35,298 nucleotides of DNA from Nitrospirae bacterium CG2_30_53_67 (GTDB taxonomy: Bacteria; CG2-30-53-67): the NCBI GenBank assembly GCA_001873285.1, contig MNYV01000125.1, forward strand, positions 1-35,298. Direction: 5' to 3'. Position numbers and translations under genes: made by a program. The notes beneath the pieces were generated by a model that saw only the letters and a program-made list of their open reading frames with translations, was not told the origin of the DNA and did not search any database. Shown here piece by piece: positions 27,687 through 35,044 of the stretch; positions within the stretch are counted from its first letter, which is position 1, and each line of letters opens with the position of its first letter.

Positions 27687-28922
27687 TCAGAACTCGTAAA
27701 TAAGGATTTTTGTCCCGCCGGCAAAAGGGCGCCATCCATCCCCAAGGATCAGGACCAGATCGTCTTTACCATTGTTATCCACATCTCCCACAGTGAGATC
27801 AAGAATCTTCCCGGATATGGGCTCCGTATCCCAGAATTCCGCCACATGACCATTGGCCAGGATCATATCTGCAACCCTGTTTCTTTTTAAAAGATGACGA
27901 ACCCCCCAGATGTCTGCCAAGGGACGATCAACAATCAGAAGGACCTCGTCCATTCCGTCCTTGTCAAAGTCACCGGAAAGAAATTTTTGAGGAATCCGGA
28001 CCCGTTTTCCCCCGGACTTCCCCTGATCATCGCCCGTATGGACCCGGAATGAAGATTGTTTGATCTCTCCAATGGAGACTCCCTTTGCTGTCTCCTTCAA
28101 ATCCGAAGAAAAGAAGCGGAGTCCTTCCGCATGGCTCAAAGTAACGTATGCGGCTCCGGCCGGATCACCGGTGAGATAACTCTCCGCATTAAAAATGTCC
28201 ACACCCTCAGGGAGCTCCATGGATTCCCCTTTTTTCACGGCGTTTCCATCCCAGAGGTAATGATACGTTTCCTTTTTCACGGAATGGAGGTCCTGCCCGG
28301 CGAGAACCGGACGGCCGTCCTCTCCGTGAAAGACCTTTAGATAAAGACCGGCATCGGCCTTATATAGCTGAAACCCGCCCTTCTCATAGGCGATGATCCC
28401 GGAGACGACCTCGTGGTCCTCTATGCCGGTAAAGAGGATCTCATCCCGGCCGTCTCCGTCAAGATCTTCGGCTGACAGCGATAAATAATGAATCCCCTTG
28501 TTCAGCTTGTTGATGGTTTCCATGGCCCTGCCTGAGTCCTCTCTTGACCAGAGCCGGGAAGAGAAGAACCCCCTTTTGCCTTCCTGGACCGAAGAAAAAA
28601 TCGGATGAAACTCTCCGTACCTCCACTGGACCATACTAAGCCGACGGCCGTCCGTGCCGATCAATTCATTCATCCCGTCCCCGTCTACGTCTCCGATGCT
28701 GGCAGACTCCAGGGAGAAATTCAGTTTTTTCTGCTTCCATATTTTTTTATAGATTTTCTTTTGAACGTAAGTAGGAATGGCTCCGATGTGCGGAGTCTCC
28801 TGCACCTCGGCGCCCTTGGATTCCGACGCAGGCGCCGCGTCTTCAGGGAATGCATTCGGGACCGGAGGCGCCATAAAAAAAAGGATGCAACTCCACAATA
28901 AAAATAAACGCAGTAATTTCAT
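27687..28922 (-). CDS. Exported FG-GAP/VCBS-repeat protein
   Basis: Signal peptide; four (G/E)D(V/L/F)D.(D/N)G..(E/D) repeats; ATGA overlap with the upstream gene. Confidence 0.88.
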   Translation of the reverse strand: MKLLRLFLLWSCILFFMAPPVPNAFPEDAAPASESKGAEVQETPHIGAIPTYVQKKIYKKIWKQKKLNFSLESASIGDVDGDGMNELIGTDGRRLSMVQWRYGEFHPIFSSVQEGKRGFFSSRLWSREDSGRAMETINKLNKGIHYLSLSAEDLDGDGRDEILFTGIEDHEVVSGIIAYEKGGFQLYKADAGLYLKVFHGEDGRPVLAGQDLHSVKKETYHYLWDGNAVKKGESMELPEGVDIFNAESYLTGDPAGAAYVTLSHAEGLRFFSSDLKETAKGVSIGEIKQSSFRVHTGDDQGKSGGKRVRIPQKFLSGDFDKDGMDEVLLIVDRPLADIWGVRHLLKRNRVADMILANGHVAEFWDTEPISGKILDLTVGDVDNNGKDDLVLILGDGWRPFAGGTKILIYEF

Positions 28923-31126
28923 CTAAGCTCCTCTATGACAGGAATCCTTTTGGACTGCAACTCTCGTTCCTCATGATCCGGAATGACACAAAACTCAAGC
29001 CGGATGAGCCGTTCGAAAACCGCGTGGGGAACCAGATGAATATCCCAGCATAAAACCAGGCAGGACCCCTGATAGATCTTTTCAAAACCCTCCTCGGAAA
29101 GGGATACGGTTTCAACCGGGAATCTCCACAAGGAGCAGGGGTGATCCAGGGAGATCTTAACCTGAATCCCTTTCCATTCATCGGTCAGGCAGACGGACTG
29201 AATCCCGTCCGTATCGCCGGCGCTTGCGAGAAAGGATGATTCCGGCTTCTCGTCATTCAGCAGATAATACCGGTCAGCGGCTGATCCGGCCAGAAGGGTC
29301 ATATTCCATTCTATGCCGAATCTCGCCATCAACTCCTGGCCGGAGAGGTTAAGAATTCGATAGCGCACCGTCAACATGGAATCCCCCGCCCGTCCATGAA
29401 CGGTCTTTGCGACCTGAACCTGCTGGGGAGGAGATGCGCCCTCGCAGGCTTGCACCCATCCGGTTCTTTCCAAGGCAACAGAGGCCTCACCAGCGGATTC
29501 TGTCTTCGTCGCGACATAAAGGCCTTGGACGAAATCGCCTCGCTCCATGTGTTTTCCTGACCGGAAGGATTCCATCCCTTCATCCGGCTTCATGAAATGG
29601 TCGACCAGGGATCTTTTTGGATACCGATCATACACAATCCGATCCGCCAGCCCTTCCTCCTTGGAAATAACCCTGTCGTGGATGGATTTTGCTCCTCCCC
29701 CCTTTTGTTCTTCCGTAGGGGCGCTTATGATATCCCGGTGGTAAAACTCGGGAACCCTCGTAAAGGTGTCCTGAAGATTAAAGGACCTGGGCTTGAAGTC
29801 CATCCCCATCAGCGTGCCTCCGAGGTGAGTGTCGAAAATAAGCGTATAACGCTCCGTGTTCATGATAGATTCGTTGATGCCGTCTTTGTCCAGATCACAA
29901 CGGATGATCTTGATCCATCCTTTCTCTCCAGGATGCATAGCCTGGTCGGCGATATATTCCGCACGGATCAGATGTTCATAGATACTGGATCTCAAATGAG
30001 GAAGATAGATCCCCCCGAACACGCCGTGCCAGTAGGCATCATTGCACTGGCCTTTCCATAACTCTTCGAGGGCTTCCGTTCTCTGCTTCCCCTTGAGCAT
30101 GTGATGGATCTTTTCGCTGATGTAGAGCATCTTCTTGTGCATCAAATTGCTCTCGGGATACTTGGAAAAAAAATTGCGCCAGAACCCCCCGCTCAAAAAG
30201 GGACGCGACATGTCTTCCAGCCCATGATCCTTGAGCTTCTGCTTCAGAACTCGGAACTCCTCTGAAGCATCGTAGATGAGGGACCATTCGCCCATCTCCA
30301 TGTAGGAGGATGTTGGAAGATAAATACGGCCCAGCGGCGGATGGGTGTCTATCACCTCGGAGAATAACTTACTCTCGATCCAGCCGCTGTTCTGCTCAAT
30401 GGCCTCAAAAAAACGATGGAGCCACCCCTCTTCGTAGACACTGTGATAGGTTCCCGGCCATGTGCCGAATTTTTCACCGTCATCCCCCATGACGGCAAGG
30501 GGCTTATCGCCGCTATCCAGAATTAACCGCAAGTAGGCCAGGGTCTCCTCCACCGGATGGAAAGGGATCAGATAACGGAGCTTCTCGCTCCCTGGAAAGA
30601 CCTTCAGGATCTTCCCTTTCTCTTCCGTGATGTAATATCCGAAGAGAGCCCTGCCCCTCAGCCCGGCCATGATAAAGTGGTGGTCATCCAGGACGATATA
30701 CTCGGCTCCGGCATTGTAAAGGGCCTCGGCCAGGTGAGGCTCCCAGACGCGCTCTGCAAGCCACATCCCCCGAGCCTCGGTATCGAAGGTTTCACGGATG
30801 AAGGAATTGAGCTTTCGTATCTGCCCCAATTTGTCGGAATCATAGAGGGTGGTCAGAATCGGCTCATAAAAGCCGCCGGACATCATCTCCACGCGGCCGG
30901 ACAACACCAGATCTCTGATCATGGAGGTGAATTCCGGATGGGTCCTTGCGAGCCACTCCAATAAAAACCCTGAATAGTGCAGGGTCACCTTGATACCTTG
31001 GTGCTCCTTCAATGCCAGCAGGAATGGGAGATAGGATTTCCGGTACGCGCTTTCGAGGACATGGGTGAAATTGCCAACCGGCTGATGGTTGTGGATGGCA
31101 AGCAAGAGAATGACTTTGTGATCCAT
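28919..31126 (-). CDS. GH57 alpha-amylase/4-alpha-glucanotransferase (DUF1925/DUF1926)
   Basis: HNHQPVGNF, GMWLAERVW, GDDGEKFG and QCNDAYWHG motifs; CAGGAG RBS before 31126. Confidence 0.94.
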   Translation of the reverse strand: MDHKVILLLAIHNHQPVGNFTHVLESAYRKSYLPFLLALKEHQGIKVTLHYSGFLLEWLARTHPEFTSMIRDLVLSGRVEMMSGGFYEPILTTLYDSDKLGQIRKLNSFIRETFDTEARGMWLAERVWEPHLAEALYNAGAEYIVLDDHHFIMAGLRGRALFGYYITEEKGKILKVFPGSEKLRYLIPFHPVEETLAYLRLILDSGDKPLAVMGDDGEKFGTWPGTYHSVYEEGWLHRFFEAIEQNSGWIESKLFSEVIDTHPPLGRIYLPTSSYMEMGEWSLIYDASEEFRVLKQKLKDHGLEDMSRPFLSGGFWRNFFSKYPESNLMHKKMLYISEKIHHMLKGKQRTEALEELWKGQCNDAYWHGVFGGIYLPHLRSSIYEHLIRAEYIADQAMHPGEKGWIKIIRCDLDKDGINESIMNTERYTLIFDTHLGGTLMGMDFKPRSFNLQDTFTRVPEFYHRDIISAPTEEQKGGGAKSIHDRVISKEEGLADRIVYDRYPKRSLVDHFMKPDEGMESFRSGKHMERGDFVQGLYVATKTESAGEASVALERTGWVQACEGASPPQQVQVAKTVHGRAGDSMLTVRYRILNLSGQELMARFGIEWNMTLLAGSAADRYYLLNDEKPESSFLASAGDTDGIQSVCLTDEWKGIQVKISLDHPCSLWRFPVETVSLSEEGFEKIYQGSCLVLCWDIHLVPHAVFERLIRLEFCVIPDHEERELQSKRIPVIEELR

Positions 31127-31322
31127 TCGTTTCTCCTGATCCGGCATTTTGCAGATTAAATAGAGAAGGATTATAATCAATGCCGTCTTTTAAATCAACC
31201 TCAGATTCTCATTCATTTTCATCCAGTTGACGTTGAAAGATCCGTTTCATTTGATCGTGATAAATTTCTAACGGGTCTGAAGGCTGGGGTGTTCTGGTGT
31301 AATGGGATAAAAAAAGTAAGTG

Positions 31323-31356
31323 AAAAAAAATGACCGGTCATTGAGACCGGTCATTT
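31323..31356 (-). terminator. Intrinsic terminator
   Basis: Minus strand TGACCGGTC-TCAAT-GACCGGTCA followed by T8. Confidence 0.85.
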
Positions 31357-31421
31357 CAAGAAAGGAGGACAGAACTTTATTAAGCCTGTGGTAAGGAGAC
31401 TCAATAAAGGATGTCTTGTAT
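31323..31421 (-). ncRNA. Candidate sigma54-dependent small RNA (~99 nt)
   Basis: sigma54 promoter directly upstream, 13-bp hairpin with two G.U pairs, three UCCU motifs, intrinsic terminator, no RBS-led ORF inside. Confidence 0.65.
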
Positions 31422-31431
31422 GATTTATATA

Positions 31432-31448
31432 TGCAAGCATGATGCCAA
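31432..31448 (-). promoter_or_regulatory. sigma54 (-24/-12) promoter
   Basis: Minus strand TTGGCATCATGCTTGCA; IHF-like AATCAA-CAGG-ATA at 31464-31476. Confidence 0.75.
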
Positions 31449-31683
31449 AAATAAAAATATTCGTATCCTGTTGATTTTTAAGAAAAATATCTTCCATGCA
31501 GTCTATCCTCACAGTGAATTTTCTGCTCATTTTCCTCCCCTCGGCAGACACCGCCCCTCCTTTCTCAGCATAACCTGTTGAAAAATAAACATTTAAAAGA
31601 TGCGCAAAAATGCGCCCCGGAAAGATCCTTTTTGAACATAGAAAAACACGATATCTTGTCAATGGTATATTTGAGAAATTTCA

Positions 31684-31893: not shown

Positions 31894-32703
31894 ATGGCCA
31901 TGAATAATATCGAACAAGAAGTAATTATTCTGAAAGCAGTCAAAGAGTTAATTGACTCAATGGTAAATTTTGAGCTGATGTCTCTGGAAGGAAACGACCC
32001 AGATTCAAATATCAGTTTCAAGTCAATGACTCACCAAATGTTTTTCAATATTATTCTGGTAGATTTCTTATCTTGTACTGACAAAAAAGGCCCAATTAAA
32101 CAAACGTCCTATTTGGGTGGTTTGCGCGTAATCTCAGATAGCCCAAGCTTTGATCAAGGAGATTCGATAATAGATTTAAAAATCGCAACACAGGAGTTCA
32201 AGGATTGGCTGGAACAGGAAGTTGAGGTCGATATTTGGTTACCTTCCATTGACAAGGAAACAAAGCTGAGTGTCACCAGGTTTAACTTTTTGAAAATGAC
32301 CGGTGATATATCGAAGCATAACTATCTTAGAGCAGTAGATGTGGCCGAAGAATTGAAAAATATTTTGGCCAAGAGTGGAGTTGACGTGGGGATAGAGGAA
32401 GCTTTATTGGCATTATCTGAATTTTATGAGCGTTTCCACACCGATATTCTAGGATACCACAGTAGCACAATCGCTGAGTTTCTTAACAATATAAGATGGG
32501 GCATTTACTATTACTTGCAGCCTAAATTCAAGAAAAGCATCGTTTGGGAAAGTAGGGAACCTCCCAAATACCGTTACACATATCCAAAAGACCTAAATTC
32601 TGAATTTGCCAAGGCATGCTATTGGGAATTAATGAATGAGGTTCGAAGTGAACCATATATGCGTAAATTCAAAGTAACGAAATGGTTAAAATTGAGATAT
32701 TAG
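31894..32703 (+). CDS. Integron cassette 1: AT-rich hypothetical protein (269 aa)
   Basis: Visibly AT-rich ORF ending 3 bp before attC1; no family recognised with confidence. Confidence 0.85.
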   Translation: MAMNNIEQEVIILKAVKELIDSMVNFELMSLEGNDPDSNISFKSMTHQMFFNIILVDFLSCTDKKGPIKQTSYLGGLRVISDSPSFDQGDSIIDLKIATQEFKDWLEQEVEVDIWLPSIDKETKLSVTRFNFLKMTGDISKHNYLRAVDVAEELKNILAKSGVDVGIEEALLALSEFYERFHTDILGYHSSTIAEFLNNIRWGIYYYLQPKFKKSIVWESREPPKYRYTYPKDLNSEFAKACYWELMNEVRSEPYMRKFKVTKWLKLRY

Positions 32704-32706
32704 GGA

Positions 32707-32797
32707 CCATAACAATTGTATTCACCAGACGGCGAGAAGCGTGGCGGCGCTGACGCGGCAAGTTCATTGGCGCCGCTGGTGATGCAGATCGTTCGAC
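32707..32797 (+). repeat. attC site 1 (91 bp)
   Basis: R'' CCATAAC, L'' ATTCACCA, L' TGGTGAT, R' GTTCGAC; the arms pair leaving two unpaired bases. Confidence 0.85.
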
Positions 32798-32813
32798 AAC
32801 AGGAGACTGAGAC

Positions 32814-33521
32814 ATGCCTCTCACAAGACAGGAATATAACGACCTAATCGCACGCAACGATGCGGAAGAGATATGTTTCATGTTCGACCCCACCCAGTGC
32901 AAGGATTTCCTGCTCAAGCTCGACAACGCTGAAGCTTTGTCGAAAACGGGCAAATCGCTCCGCTTCGAGTCGCGAGTCGTCCGGACCATCGTGCATTTTC
33001 TAGAGCCCGTTTCTCTGCTGGTGGCAATCGTTGCCGGTTTCGTATGGCTCAAGTGGTGGGGATTACTCATGGCGCCAAGTGTCTGTATTTTTTGGATCAT
33101 GATTAAATCGATGTCCTCAAGTGGCAGGCAGGGCATCATCGTCCCTTTCATTACATTTTCATTAGGAGTTGTCCTTATGGTTGTGTTTCGGGAACAAGGC
33201 CCGGCATGCATCACATTCATCCTTGCCCTGTCGCTGCTTTACCTTTCAGAAAAGATGCTCTATGCCCTTCCCGTAGTGTTTTTCTCATTTCTTGTTCGCT
33301 CGAATTACGAACTCGTGAACGTGGTGTATGACAAGCCGGTTGATGATTTCAACCGTGAGATGGACATCCCCCTGATGTGGCATGTTGAAACACCGGAAGG
33401 GAAGATTCCGCAGGCAAACCCGAAACTGCCTTCCCGACTCTTCTTGACGCTGTATGGTTTCTTCAACAAGGAATGCCGAACCAAGGCATTCAGCGGACGC
33501 AATAAACCGCGCCGCTGGTGA
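32814..33521 (+). CDS. Integron cassette 2: polytopic membrane hypothetical protein (235 aa)
   Basis: CAGGAG RBS; about four hydrophobic segments; stop lies inside attC2. Confidence 0.8.
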   Translation: MPLTRQEYNDLIARNDAEEICFMFDPTQCKDFLLKLDNAEALSKTGKSLRFESRVVRTIVHFLEPVSLLVAIVAGFVWLKWWGLLMAPSVCIFWIMIKSMSSSGRQGIIVPFITFSLGVVLMVVFREQGPACITFILALSLLYLSEKMLYALPVVFFSFLVRSNYELVNVVYDKPVDDFNREMDIPLMWHVETPEGKIPQANPKLPSRLFLTLYGFFNKECRTKAFSGRNKPRRW

Positions 33522-33536
33522 TGCAGATCGTTCGTC
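33475..33536 (+). repeat. attC site 2 (62 bp, apparently chimeric)
   Basis: R'' GCCGAAC pairs with the cassette start GTTCGAC (6/7); right arm is 26/26 identical to that of attC1. Confidence 0.8.
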
Positions 33537-33538
33537 GT

Positions 33539-33586
33539 ATACCAAGGACATCAAGAGTCGTATTGCCAAACGATCCCCATCATGTT
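33539..33586 (+). pseudogene. 5' stub of a RAYT/Y1 (HUH) transposase gene
   Basis: Reads (I)PRTSRVVLPNDPHHV, resembling the MPR.AR..(L)P..PHHV N-terminus of REP-associated tyrosine transposases; ATA in place of ATG. Confidence 0.55.
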
Positions 33587-33622
33587 GATTTCCTCTTTGA
33601 AAAAATCTTTGAAAAAATTTTA

Positions 33623-35044
33623 TGTAATCCCAAAATGATAATGTCCTATTTGGCCAAAGTAGAAATGTCCTATTCTGAGTTATAATGTTCTCTTTTACAA
33701 GGAGGGCATTGTGACGGAAAAGGACATGATCACCATGAGCAGAAAGGAATCGAGGAGGCTTCACATTATCCATCAGGCACTGGATGAGAAGATCACGCAG
33801 GTTGATGCGGCATCGGTTGTCGGTCTCACCGACCGTCAGATGAGGAGATTGATCAAGCGAGTTCGGGAAGAAGGCGACGGAGGCATCTGCCACAGAAGTC
33901 GCGGCAAGACGTCGAATCACCGGATTCCCAGGAAAATCAAAGACAAAGCCCTCAAGCTGTATCGGGAGCGATACAGCGACTTTGGCCCTACCTTGGCCAG
34001 CGAGAAGTTGTTGGAGAGCCATCAGATTGCGTTAAGTGATGAGACGCTTCGGCTTTGGCTCAACCAGGAGGATGTTCCTTACAGGAAGCGCAAGAAGAGG
34101 GCCCATCGACAGTGGAGAGAGAGAAAGAAGCATTTCGGGGAGATGGTCCAGATGGACGGCTCTCATCATGACTGGTTCGAAGGCCGGGGCCCGAAATGCG
34201 TGTTGATGGGATACATCGATGACGCCACGGGGAATGCGTACGGCCGGTTTTATGGCTACGAAGGGACCCTGCCTGCCATGGACAGTTTTAAGCGGTATGC
34301 CCAGTGCTACGGCATCCCCCAGATCGTCTATTTGGACAGACACTCCACGTACAAATCCACGGCCAAGCAGACCGTGGAAGAGGAGCTGACCGACAAGAAG
34401 CCCCAAAGCCAGTTTGAGCGGGCCTTAAGTGAGCTTGTAATAAAGGTCATCCATGCCCATTCCCCGCAAGCCAAAGGGAGAATTGAAAGGCTGTTTCGTA
34501 CCCTCCAGGATCGGCTGGTCAAAGAGATGCGGCTTGCCGGCATCCATACCGTGGAGCAGGCCAATGAGTTTTTAAAAAGGTGGCTGCCCGTATACAACAG
34601 AAAATTCAGGGTCACGGCCGCAGCCGAGGCTGATCTTCACCGACCCGTATTGCCTGCTCGGGAACTTGACAAGATCCTCTGTATCCAGGAAGAGCGCACC
34701 GTACGGAATGACTTTACCATAGCCCACAATGGCAAGCTCTACCAGATCGAAGAGCGGGTCAAGGCGAAAAAGGTCATGGTGGAAGAACGACTCGACGGCT
34801 CCCTGCATATCACCACCCCAAGCCAGGATCTTCGATATCGGGAAATCACCACGCTACCGGTCAAACAAGGATCAAAACCCAGGGTATCAACTCAGAGAAA
34901 AAGAGGATGGACGCCTCCCCCTGACCACCCCTGGAGACGACCTATTAAACGACAGCCAGGAACAAAGGAGCAACTACATCTGACTGGCTAAAACCGGACA
35001 TTTCTATCTTGGTAAGAATAGGACATTTCTATTTTGGCTTTACA
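33623..35044 (+). mobile_element. IS1202-family (ISNCY) insertion sequence, 1422 bp, 16-bp target duplication
   Basis: TGT...ACA ends with repeated AATGTCC(TATT) sub-repeats; CTTTGAAAAAATTTTA at 33607-33622 and 35045-35060. Confidence 0.92.
33711..34991 (+). CDS. IS1202/ISNCY-family DDE transposase
   Basis: N-terminal HTH, QMDGSHHDWFE, IDDATG, YLDRHS, PQAKGRIERLFRTLQDRL, C-terminal PPPDHPWR. Confidence 0.95.
   Translation: MTEKDMITMSRKESRRLHIIHQALDEKITQVDAASVVGLTDRQMRRLIKRVREEGDGGICHRSRGKTSNHRIPRKIKDKALKLYRERYSDFGPTLASEKLLESHQIALSDETLRLWLNQEDVPYRKRKKRAHRQWRERKKHFGEMVQMDGSHHDWFEGRGPKCVLMGYIDDATGNAYGRFYGYEGTLPAMDSFKRYAQCYGIPQIVYLDRHSTYKSTAKQTVEEELTDKKPQSQFERALSELVIKVIHAHSPQAKGRIERLFRTLQDRLVKEMRLAGIHTVEQANEFLKRWLPVYNRKFRVTAAAEADLHRPVLPARELDKILCIQEERTVRNDFTIAHNGKLYQIEERVKAKKVMVEERLDGSLHITTPSQDLRYREITTLPVKQGSKPRVSTQRKRGWTPPPDHPWRRPIKRQPGTKEQLHLTG

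Follow-up and report, generated by a model that had tools for sequence, protein, structure and literature searches.

A conserved, previously undescribed small RNA family with a predicted sigma-54 promoter and a 16S-tail-like seed in an uncultured Nitrospirae lineage

Introduction

Does an intergenic gap of 770 nt in the genome of an uncultured Nitrospirae bacterium contain the gene for an independent small RNA and, if so, what might this RNA do? The gap lies in contig MNYV01000125.1 of Nitrospirae bacterium CG2_30_53_67 (assembly GCA_001873285.1), of which positions 1 to 35,298 are called the window here. It separates a GH57 gene, whose interval ends at 31126, from a divergent 269-aa open reading frame (ORF) that starts at 31894. 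The original prediction, made from the sequence of the window, placed on the minus strand of this gap an enhancer-like palindrome, an IHF-like site, a sigma-54 promoter and an undescribed small RNA (sRNA) that carries anti-Shine-Dalgarno seeds and ends at an intrinsic terminator. When the sequence is re-read, every claimed element is found at its claimed position on that strand. Here we compare the locus with its counterparts in related genomes and weigh the sRNA reading against its alternatives.

Architecture of the locus

The genes and elements of the region are listed below in descending order of position, which is the direction in which the minus strand is transcribed.

31894-32703, plus strand: divergent 269-aa ORF without a Pfam match.
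31623..31638, minus strand: predicted upstream activator site 1, with the sequence TGTTCAAAAAGGATCT, some 210 nt ahead of the +1 position and kept in all aligned versions.
31601..31616, unstranded: predicted upstream activator site 2, which reads TGCGCAAAAATGCGCC on the plus strand; the same motif as site 1, inverted.
31524..31538, minus strand: conserved box GGAGGAAAATGAGCA (consensus GGAWRAAAWKGRRCA), a conservation island in the 10-sequence alignment.
31464..31476, minus strand: IHF-like site AATCAACAGGATA, with AWTCAA-N4-WTA kept in 10/10 versions.
31432..31447, minus strand: predicted sigma-54 promoter TGGCAT-CATGC-TTGCA (-24 GG, -12 GC), with YGGCAY-N5-TTGCW in 10/10 versions and rpoN in the genome.
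31323..31421, minus strand: predicted 99-nt small RNA, a conserved BLAST block that a covariance model scores at 107.3 bits (31423-31323).
31375..31409, minus strand: 5' hairpin of 13 bp with UCUCCUU in its loop; helix 1 is 97.3% paired and has one compensatory pair.
31356..31373, minus strand: invariant unpaired seed UCUGUCCUCCUUUCUUGA, identical in 10/10 versions.
31368-31359, minus strand: seed core CCUCCUUUCU, equal to the 16S rRNA 3' tail.
31323..31357, minus strand: Rho-independent terminator hairpin with U8; 8/13 pairs show compensatory changes, and the helix is 99.2% paired.
31170..31198, minus strand: sigma-70-type promoter of GH57, TTGATT-17-TATAAT, which lies outside the sRNA and marks GH57 as a separate unit.
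28919-31126, minus strand: GH57 gene (Pfam Glyco_hydro_57 with AmyA domains).

The predicted RNA thus consists of the 5' hairpin, the unpaired stretch UCUGUCCUCCUUUCUUGA and the terminator with its U8 tail, in this order. The hairpin has the 13 bp originally described, including two G.U pairs, which would turn into mismatches on the opposite strand. A terminator scan reports 31357-31327, with 13 pairs (six of them G-C) followed by T8. The U8 tail is accordingly as first described, and the stem, given originally as 9 bp, is best understood as nine G/C-rich pairs that A-U pairs extend to 13. The original count of three UCCU motifs needs correction, for there are four when UCCUCCU is taken as two overlapping copies.

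Distribution among relatives

A BLASTN search with a 381-nt query (window 31680-31300) against 61 genomes gave matches with E < 1e-4 in the rest of the family (8/8 genomes) and in 0/52 genomes from elsewhere. For genera g2, g4 and g5 (six genomes), the alignments begin at query positions 260-272 and end at 357-372, which correspond to window positions 31421-31409 and 31324-31309. The stretch that can be aligned in these genera is therefore essentially the predicted transcript. In one further genome (G003), BLASTN aligned a 30-nt core alone (query 296-325).

A covariance model built from nine copies was used to search a phylum sample of 14 species genomes. It finds exactly one copy, scoring 88-111 bits, in each of the nine genomes of the window's family, and no copy in any of the five sister-family genomes. 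In the latter, hflX, which in most of the window's family lies upstream of the RNA (see below), is present in 5/5, but no sigma-54 element or similar RNA follows it. An exact 20-nt seed pattern has seven matches in the species-genome collection, all in family members. The same pattern occurs in five metagenome contigs, four of them identical to the window over the compared 135-nt core and one a new variant. Two contigs of 77.7 and 44.4 kb from one metagenome (L048 and L050) both carry the window-identical core, and could represent two strains or a duplicated region. The promoter and RNA alignments described below use a comparison set of 10 distinct versions.

Structure and strand of the RNA

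The 99-nt RNA has a predicted folding energy of -36.7 kcal/mol (z = -8.0), and 0/200 shuffled sequences fold as well. When the 10 versions are aligned with MAFFT, 98.1% of the 259 cells that should be paired form standard pairs. Nine of the 26 pairs are changed on both sides, eight of them in the terminator and one in the 5' hairpin. The observed pairing and compensatory values are reached by 0/500 shuffles, and partners that are slid out of register give 16-57% pairing. The check for homologs and covariation that the original prediction had proposed thus yields a structured block with compensatory changes in relatives, and the RNA gene is far more than a chance arrangement.

At several pairs, some or all versions have G.U, where the other strand would give A.C. 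Together with the U tract, these pairs indicate that the RNA is made from the minus strand. In all 10 versions, promoter and terminator delimit 95-105 nt, and the terminator is followed by 6-8 U. The 24 sequencing runs listed as containing the sequence are all DNA runs.

The RNA does not belong to a described family as far as Rfam 15 is concerned, which has no match in the window at gathering scores, in agreement with the original proposal that the sRNA was undescribed. The best sub-threshold match is SorX (RF02784), which reaches 26.5 bits where its gathering score is 46.6. This match was rejected, as were those to STnc390, sX14 and mmgR, because all of them rest on the terminator and CCUCC. 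No description of the RNA turned up in a limited search of the open literature on sigma-54 sRNAs and on the lineage label of two relatives, under which papers on sulfur metabolism and taxonomy are found.

Promoter and activator sites

The 340 nt upstream of the RNA cannot be aligned among the 10 distinct versions except in a few islands. These are two inverted copies of a 15-16-nt motif, TGYGCAAAAWWGMAC, that lie a few bases apart, the conserved box, the AWTCAA-N4-WTA motif and the YGGCAY-N5-TTGCW motif. The last of these corresponds to the sigma-54 element TTGGCATCATGCTTGCA at 31448-31432 (minus strand). Its GG at 31446-45 and GC at 31434-33 place the predicted +1 position near 31421, and in 10/10 versions the conserved block begins 12 nt downstream of the C in the -12 GC. 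This constant distance supports the promoter that was originally proposed, and the retention of AWTCAA-N4-WTA is in keeping with a putative IHF site at 31464-31476. A sigma-70-like match that overlaps the element, TTGGCA-17-AATCAT, was rejected because its -10 part is not conserved.

A gene for sigma-54, rpoN, was found in 14/14 genomes of the phylum, and its Sigma54_DBD domain scores 203 bits in the window's own genome (G000). This genome also encodes 17 strong enhancer-binding-protein genes (Sigma54_activat matches of at least 130 bits) and three HU/IHF-family genes. On its contig C84 (2688-4110), a HU/IHF-family gene adjoins an enhancer-binding-protein gene. Matches to the -24/-12 pattern number 28 in G000, compared to 9.4 expected.

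The two inverted sites were evaluated with a leave-out activator matrix, which was built from the relatives' sites only. With this matrix, no site in the 2.37-Mb G000 genome scores higher than 31601-31616 (20.3 bits). The site at 31623-31638 reaches 13.2 bits, and no other convergent pair in the genome has two sites of at least 10 bits within 45 nt. The promoter of the sRNA is the only one of the 28 sigma-54-like promoters in G000 with the activator motif upstream; the others score at most 9.7 bits. A weak pair of activator motifs on contig C158 has no -24/-12 element nearby. Since the motif accompanies just one of the 28 promoters, the activator looks dedicated to the sRNA gene, as judged from a genome that is 95% complete and with a promoter pattern that is crude.

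The enhancer-like palindrome of the original prediction, GCGCATTTTTGCGC (31615-31602, minus strand), coincides with upstream activator site 2. Its interpretation gains from the motif's retention across aligned versions and from its top score in the genome; the companion site at 31638-31623 had been missed. A scan flagged the same palindrome as a terminator. However, its arms cannot pair in other genera, where the motif is nevertheless kept, so the palindrome is read as a probable protein-binding site.

One further sequence in the sRNA's own promoter region, GAGAAAGGAGGGG (31553-31565, minus strand), is a complement of the seed, probably by chance, since relatives do not keep it.

Seed and proposed mechanism

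The C/U-rich linker between the two hairpins of the RNA, originally noted as single-stranded, is invariant over 18 nt in every version and is predicted to be unpaired, with unpaired probabilities of 0.70-1.00 in its core. This 10-nt core, CCUCCUUUCU, exactly matches the 16S rRNA 3' tail in the same genome, a tail that reads ...GGAUCACCUCCUUUCUAAGG on contig C157. The RNA therefore presents the ribosome's anti-Shine-Dalgarno sequence together with flanks of its own. Hfq (PF17209) scores above the cut-off in 0/14 phylum genomes, while control genomes are positive. Because Hfq is absent, any pairing by the seed would be chaperone-free or would use an unknown protein.

We think it reasonably probable that the RNA is a sigma-54-activated, trans-acting sRNA that blocks ribosome-binding sites without Hfq and thereby represses translation. 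According to this model, an enhancer-binding protein would bind the two inverted upstream sites, and a DNA bend at the IHF-like site would help it to activate sigma-54 RNA polymerase at the -24/-12 element. Transcription would start near 31421 and stop at the intrinsic terminator, releasing a trans-acting RNA of about 99 nt. This RNA would display, between two hairpins, an 18-nt unpaired C/U-rich stretch that combines an anti-Shine-Dalgarno copy with specific flanks. The seed could then pair with the ribosome-binding sites of selected mRNAs without Hfq, block binding of the 30S subunit and repress translation. A more detailed proposal, that a dedicated activator serves this one promoter and that the sRNA out-competes the 30S subunit at extended Shine-Dalgarno sites (fadL-like, rplJ and a few dozen others), is speculative, and we rate it as rather doubtful. 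If it is true, the RNA would act as a brake on translation that a signal sets off and that needs no chaperone, in a phylum without Hfq.

Candidate targets

When a 24-nt seed window was run against G000, its 10,517 candidate start sites scored -13.6 kcal/mol on average (standard deviation 3.3). The top rows are the genes for an NrfD-type subunit (-32.4 kcal/mol), a HisF-like protein (-29.5) and an outer-membrane transporter of the FadL/TodX family (-27.8). Further down the ranking stand a MobA-like gene (-27.5) and the gene for ETF-alpha (-27.0 kcal/mol).

Pairing between the 18-nt seed and the FadL/TodX start region is retained in 7/7 orthologs found, at -22.6 to -24.8 kcal/mol. The start regions have three different sequences across genera, and pairing is kept in each. 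Seeds with shuffled flanks give -14.7 to -16.6 kcal/mol; 0-6 of 300 are as good in a given genome, and 0/300 for the sum. The 16S tail itself pairs with the same regions at merely -11.7 to -17.4 kcal/mol. For genera g3 and g4, a duplex is predicted that involves all 18 seed bases and covers the Shine-Dalgarno sequence and the start codon of the mRNA. The seven genomes correspond to only about four independent lineages. No FadL ortholog was found in G002 or G008, and the distant Toluene_X paralogs in these genomes pair less well. The FadL/TodX mRNA is the best candidate target, which we regard as a lead and not as a finding.

In G000, the FadL/TodX gene (contig C167, 3-1208) is cut by the contig end, leaving 402 aa compared to 468 aa in G001. 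Upstream of it, G001 and G003 carry a gene for a DUF302 protein.

Other high-ranking sites were rejected as conserved targets. Pairing to the NrfD-type gene is kept in G000, G001 and G002 only, and that to the HisF-like gene in genus g1 only and partly in G002. ETF-alpha pairs in 1/8 genomes, and its summed energy is matched by 52/300 shuffles. The MobA-like gene has no ortholog at 1e-20 in five genomes. Genus g4 has a site in a Porin_4 gene that other genera do not keep.

Two of these genes carry long complements to the seed. The NrfD-type start region (G000 C89, 16970-16990; G001 C14; G002 C272) contains a 16-bp seed complement that falls within the upstream coding gene, at its 3' end. The 5' UTR of the Porin_4 gene, which is located downstream of cheW, contains a perfect 16-nt seed complement (L106, 1498-1516, on contig C5 of G006; G004 C182, 2032-2046) about 110 nt before the start codon. 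At the corresponding spot, other genera have a purine-rich, Shine-Dalgarno-like site and short upstream ORFs, with weaker pairing.

A different kind of site is that of rplJ, whose conserved start site GAAAGGAGG pairs with the seed at about -21 kcal/mol in 6/6 genomes. This consistency implies that part of the signal reflects a strong Shine-Dalgarno sequence alone. The rplJ leader CUGUGAACAGAUUAGAGGAAAGGAGGA (L081, L185-L189) is nearly invariant across five genera.

On a genomic scale, G000 shows no clear excess of strong sites for the real seed over flank-shuffled seeds. At -25 kcal/mol or below, the real seed has three sites versus a mean of 0.3 and a maximum of 3 for the shuffled seeds; at -22 or below, it has seven versus a mean of 3.3 and a maximum of 12. 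Likewise, a 15-mer target pattern that tolerates G.U pairs has 144 matches in nine genomes compared to 133 for its reversed control.

The lack of a genome-wide excess is what might be expected if the RNA were a decoy or a protein-binding RNA. As a mimic of the 16S tail, it could titrate a factor that binds the tail or C/U-rich RNA (a nuclease, a maturation factor or another), or it could compete at all extended Shine-Dalgarno sites. A core that copies the tail exactly would fit such a role, as would an invariance over 18 nt that exceeds what most seeds need. The seed's pairing energies also correlate with the energies that the 16S tail gives (r = 0.62), and rplJ, with its canonical extended Shine-Dalgarno sequence, pairs in every genome compared. 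However, each RNA has a single full motif, unlike the known multi-site sponges for CsrA-type proteins, and no candidate protein partner was identified. Global competition is at odds with the finding that just 17/1497 crude start regions pair at -20 kcal/mol or below. The FadL site, moreover, makes use of flanks that are not part of the 16S tail and beats the tail by 5 to 11 kcal/mol. We consider the decoy reading unlikely.

Independence from neighboring genes

The sRNA gene has kept similar company in most of the family. hflX lies upstream on the same strand in 7/9 genomes and GH57 lies downstream on the same strand in 8/9, so that the ancestral order is, from these sequences, most simply hflX, RNA, GH57. 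The RNA is retained where either neighbor has been replaced, as with hflX in G000 and G001, and GH57 in G003, where a MutS-like gene takes its place.

The frequent position of GH57 downstream raises the possibility that the RNA is a cis-acting leader, in which case the sigma-54 promoter would drive GH57 through a conditional terminator. The original prediction had named this reading as one that would count against an sRNA. It is disfavored because a conserved sigma-70-type promoter that belongs to GH57 (TTGCTT or TTGATT, then TATAAT) stands between the terminator and the ATG, 57-83 nt before the latter, in 8/8 genomes. The gap from terminator to GH57 varies from 84 to 399 nt, and the GH57 start region pairs weakly with the seed (-6.4 to -14.1 kcal/mol). 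The terminator is strong and is kept by compensatory changes, the consensus has no alternative antiterminator fold, and G003 keeps the RNA upstream of a gene other than GH57. A leader function is thus very unlikely, and some read-through into GH57 may occur. The GH57 promoter itself is strongly conserved and has an extended -10 element (TTGMTT...TGNTATAAT; window 31170-31198 and L041-L047).

The frequent position of hflX upstream would suit another reading, in which the conserved block is regulatory DNA that yields no stable RNA, or a 3' element of the ancestral hflX gene. The G.U pairs and the compensatory changes point instead to selection on an RNA fold from one strand. The unit also has its own promoter and persists in G000 and G001, where hflX is not adjacent. 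This explanation is, in our judgment, highly improbable.

In the relatives (L042, 43-1695, in G006; L041, L043 and L045-L047), the hflX product is about 550 aa long, with GTPase domains that begin near residue 205. Its first 200 residues are 65-68% identical between genera and look like a conserved N-terminal extension. In the window, positions 31894-34991 contain, in place of hflX, ORFs of 269 and 235 aa without a Pfam match and an integrase/transposase-like gene (33711-34991) with rve_3 and HTH domains. The replaced neighbor and the integrase/transposase-like gene suggest that this flank of the RNA gene has been rearranged.

The original statement that no gene lies between promoter and terminator holds in that no ORF there is conserved, and needs the qualification that a 103-aa ORF on the minus strand (59 aa from its ATG, 31530-31351) and a 56-aa ORF on the plus strand (31411-31581) overlap the region. 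That either encodes a small protein can practically be dismissed, even with a GGAGG before the minus-strand ATG: among ORFs of at least 20 aa in the 10 versions, none on either strand recurs in frame and length outside the window's genus, the meta51 and G003 versions have no ORF of this size overlapping the RNA, the genus partner G001 alone keeps a 53-aa plus-strand counterpart and the minus-strand N-terminus, the ATG is lost in genus g5, and there is no Pfam match.

We conclude that the locus very probably encodes an independent small RNA. As a predicted transcript, it is a real, conserved and previously undescribed family of a familiar kind of regulator. To a promoter, structure, seed and terminator that are conserved, and to a unit that is independent of its neighbors, we add a mechanism, an activator and a target that are proposed from the sequences.

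Comparison with known small RNAs

The unit would work like the sRNAs linked to sigma-54 and like the anti-Shine-Dalgarno sRNAs, and it belongs to none of their families. Among the former, the Qrr sRNAs of Vibrio are sigma-54-dependent, and their promoters are reportedly the main target of a dedicated activator, LuxO. The sRNA promoter described here would resemble them in being the sole sigma-54-like promoter of G000 that has the activator motif. However, Qrr RNAs depend on Hfq, which is absent here, the Rfam Qrr model gives no match, and the LuxO site differs from the activator motif found here. SorX, whose sub-threshold match rests on the terminator and CCUCC alone, is similar in having a CCUCC-containing linker followed by a terminator hairpin.

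Closest in anatomy among the systems compared, as far as its published description goes, is CJnc230 (FlmE) of Campylobacter jejuni. This 98-nt RNA has two stem-loops around an unpaired anti-Shine-Dalgarno stretch, its expression is RpoN-dependent, and it directly represses mRNAs (PMC11187230). It is described as being cut out of the flgE mRNA (PMC11187230), whereas the RNA studied here has a stand-alone sigma-54 promoter with predicted activator sites of its own. There is no sequence relation, the taxa are unrelated, and the seed comprises 18 nt here compared to 12 in CJnc230.

The promoter resembles the Enterobacteriaceae promoters for GlmY and GlmZ, which are described as having the same layout of activator sites, IHF and sigma-54 (PMC3045617). 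The GlmY/GlmZ promoters carry three GlrR sites, compared to two inverted sites here. The RNAs also differ in function, since GlmY and GlmZ act by protein sequestration and glmS activation and not through an anti-Shine-Dalgarno seed, and they have no Rfam match here.

An ultraconserved, unpaired anti-Shine-Dalgarno motif is also known from the alpha-r14 RNA NfeR1 of rhizobia, where it occludes the ribosome-binding sites of several mRNAs (PMC10746234). NfeR1 is described as having three hairpins with CCUCCUCCC in each loop, activation by LsrB, repression by NtrC and a promoter that lacks a sigma-54 signature (PMC10746234). That description sets it apart from the RNA studied here, which has two hairpins, one motif (CCUCCUUUCU) in the linker and a sigma-54 promoter.

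Conclusions

With the RNA described here, this uncultured lineage would gain its first proposed regulatory RNA, which could seed an Rfam family. The RNA provides a testable module that is composed of conserved activator sites, a sigma-54 promoter, a predicted RNA of 99 nt and a candidate outer-membrane target. It would also offer a case of RNA regulation, predicted to operate without Hfq, in which the seed copies the anti-Shine-Dalgarno tail of 16S rRNA.
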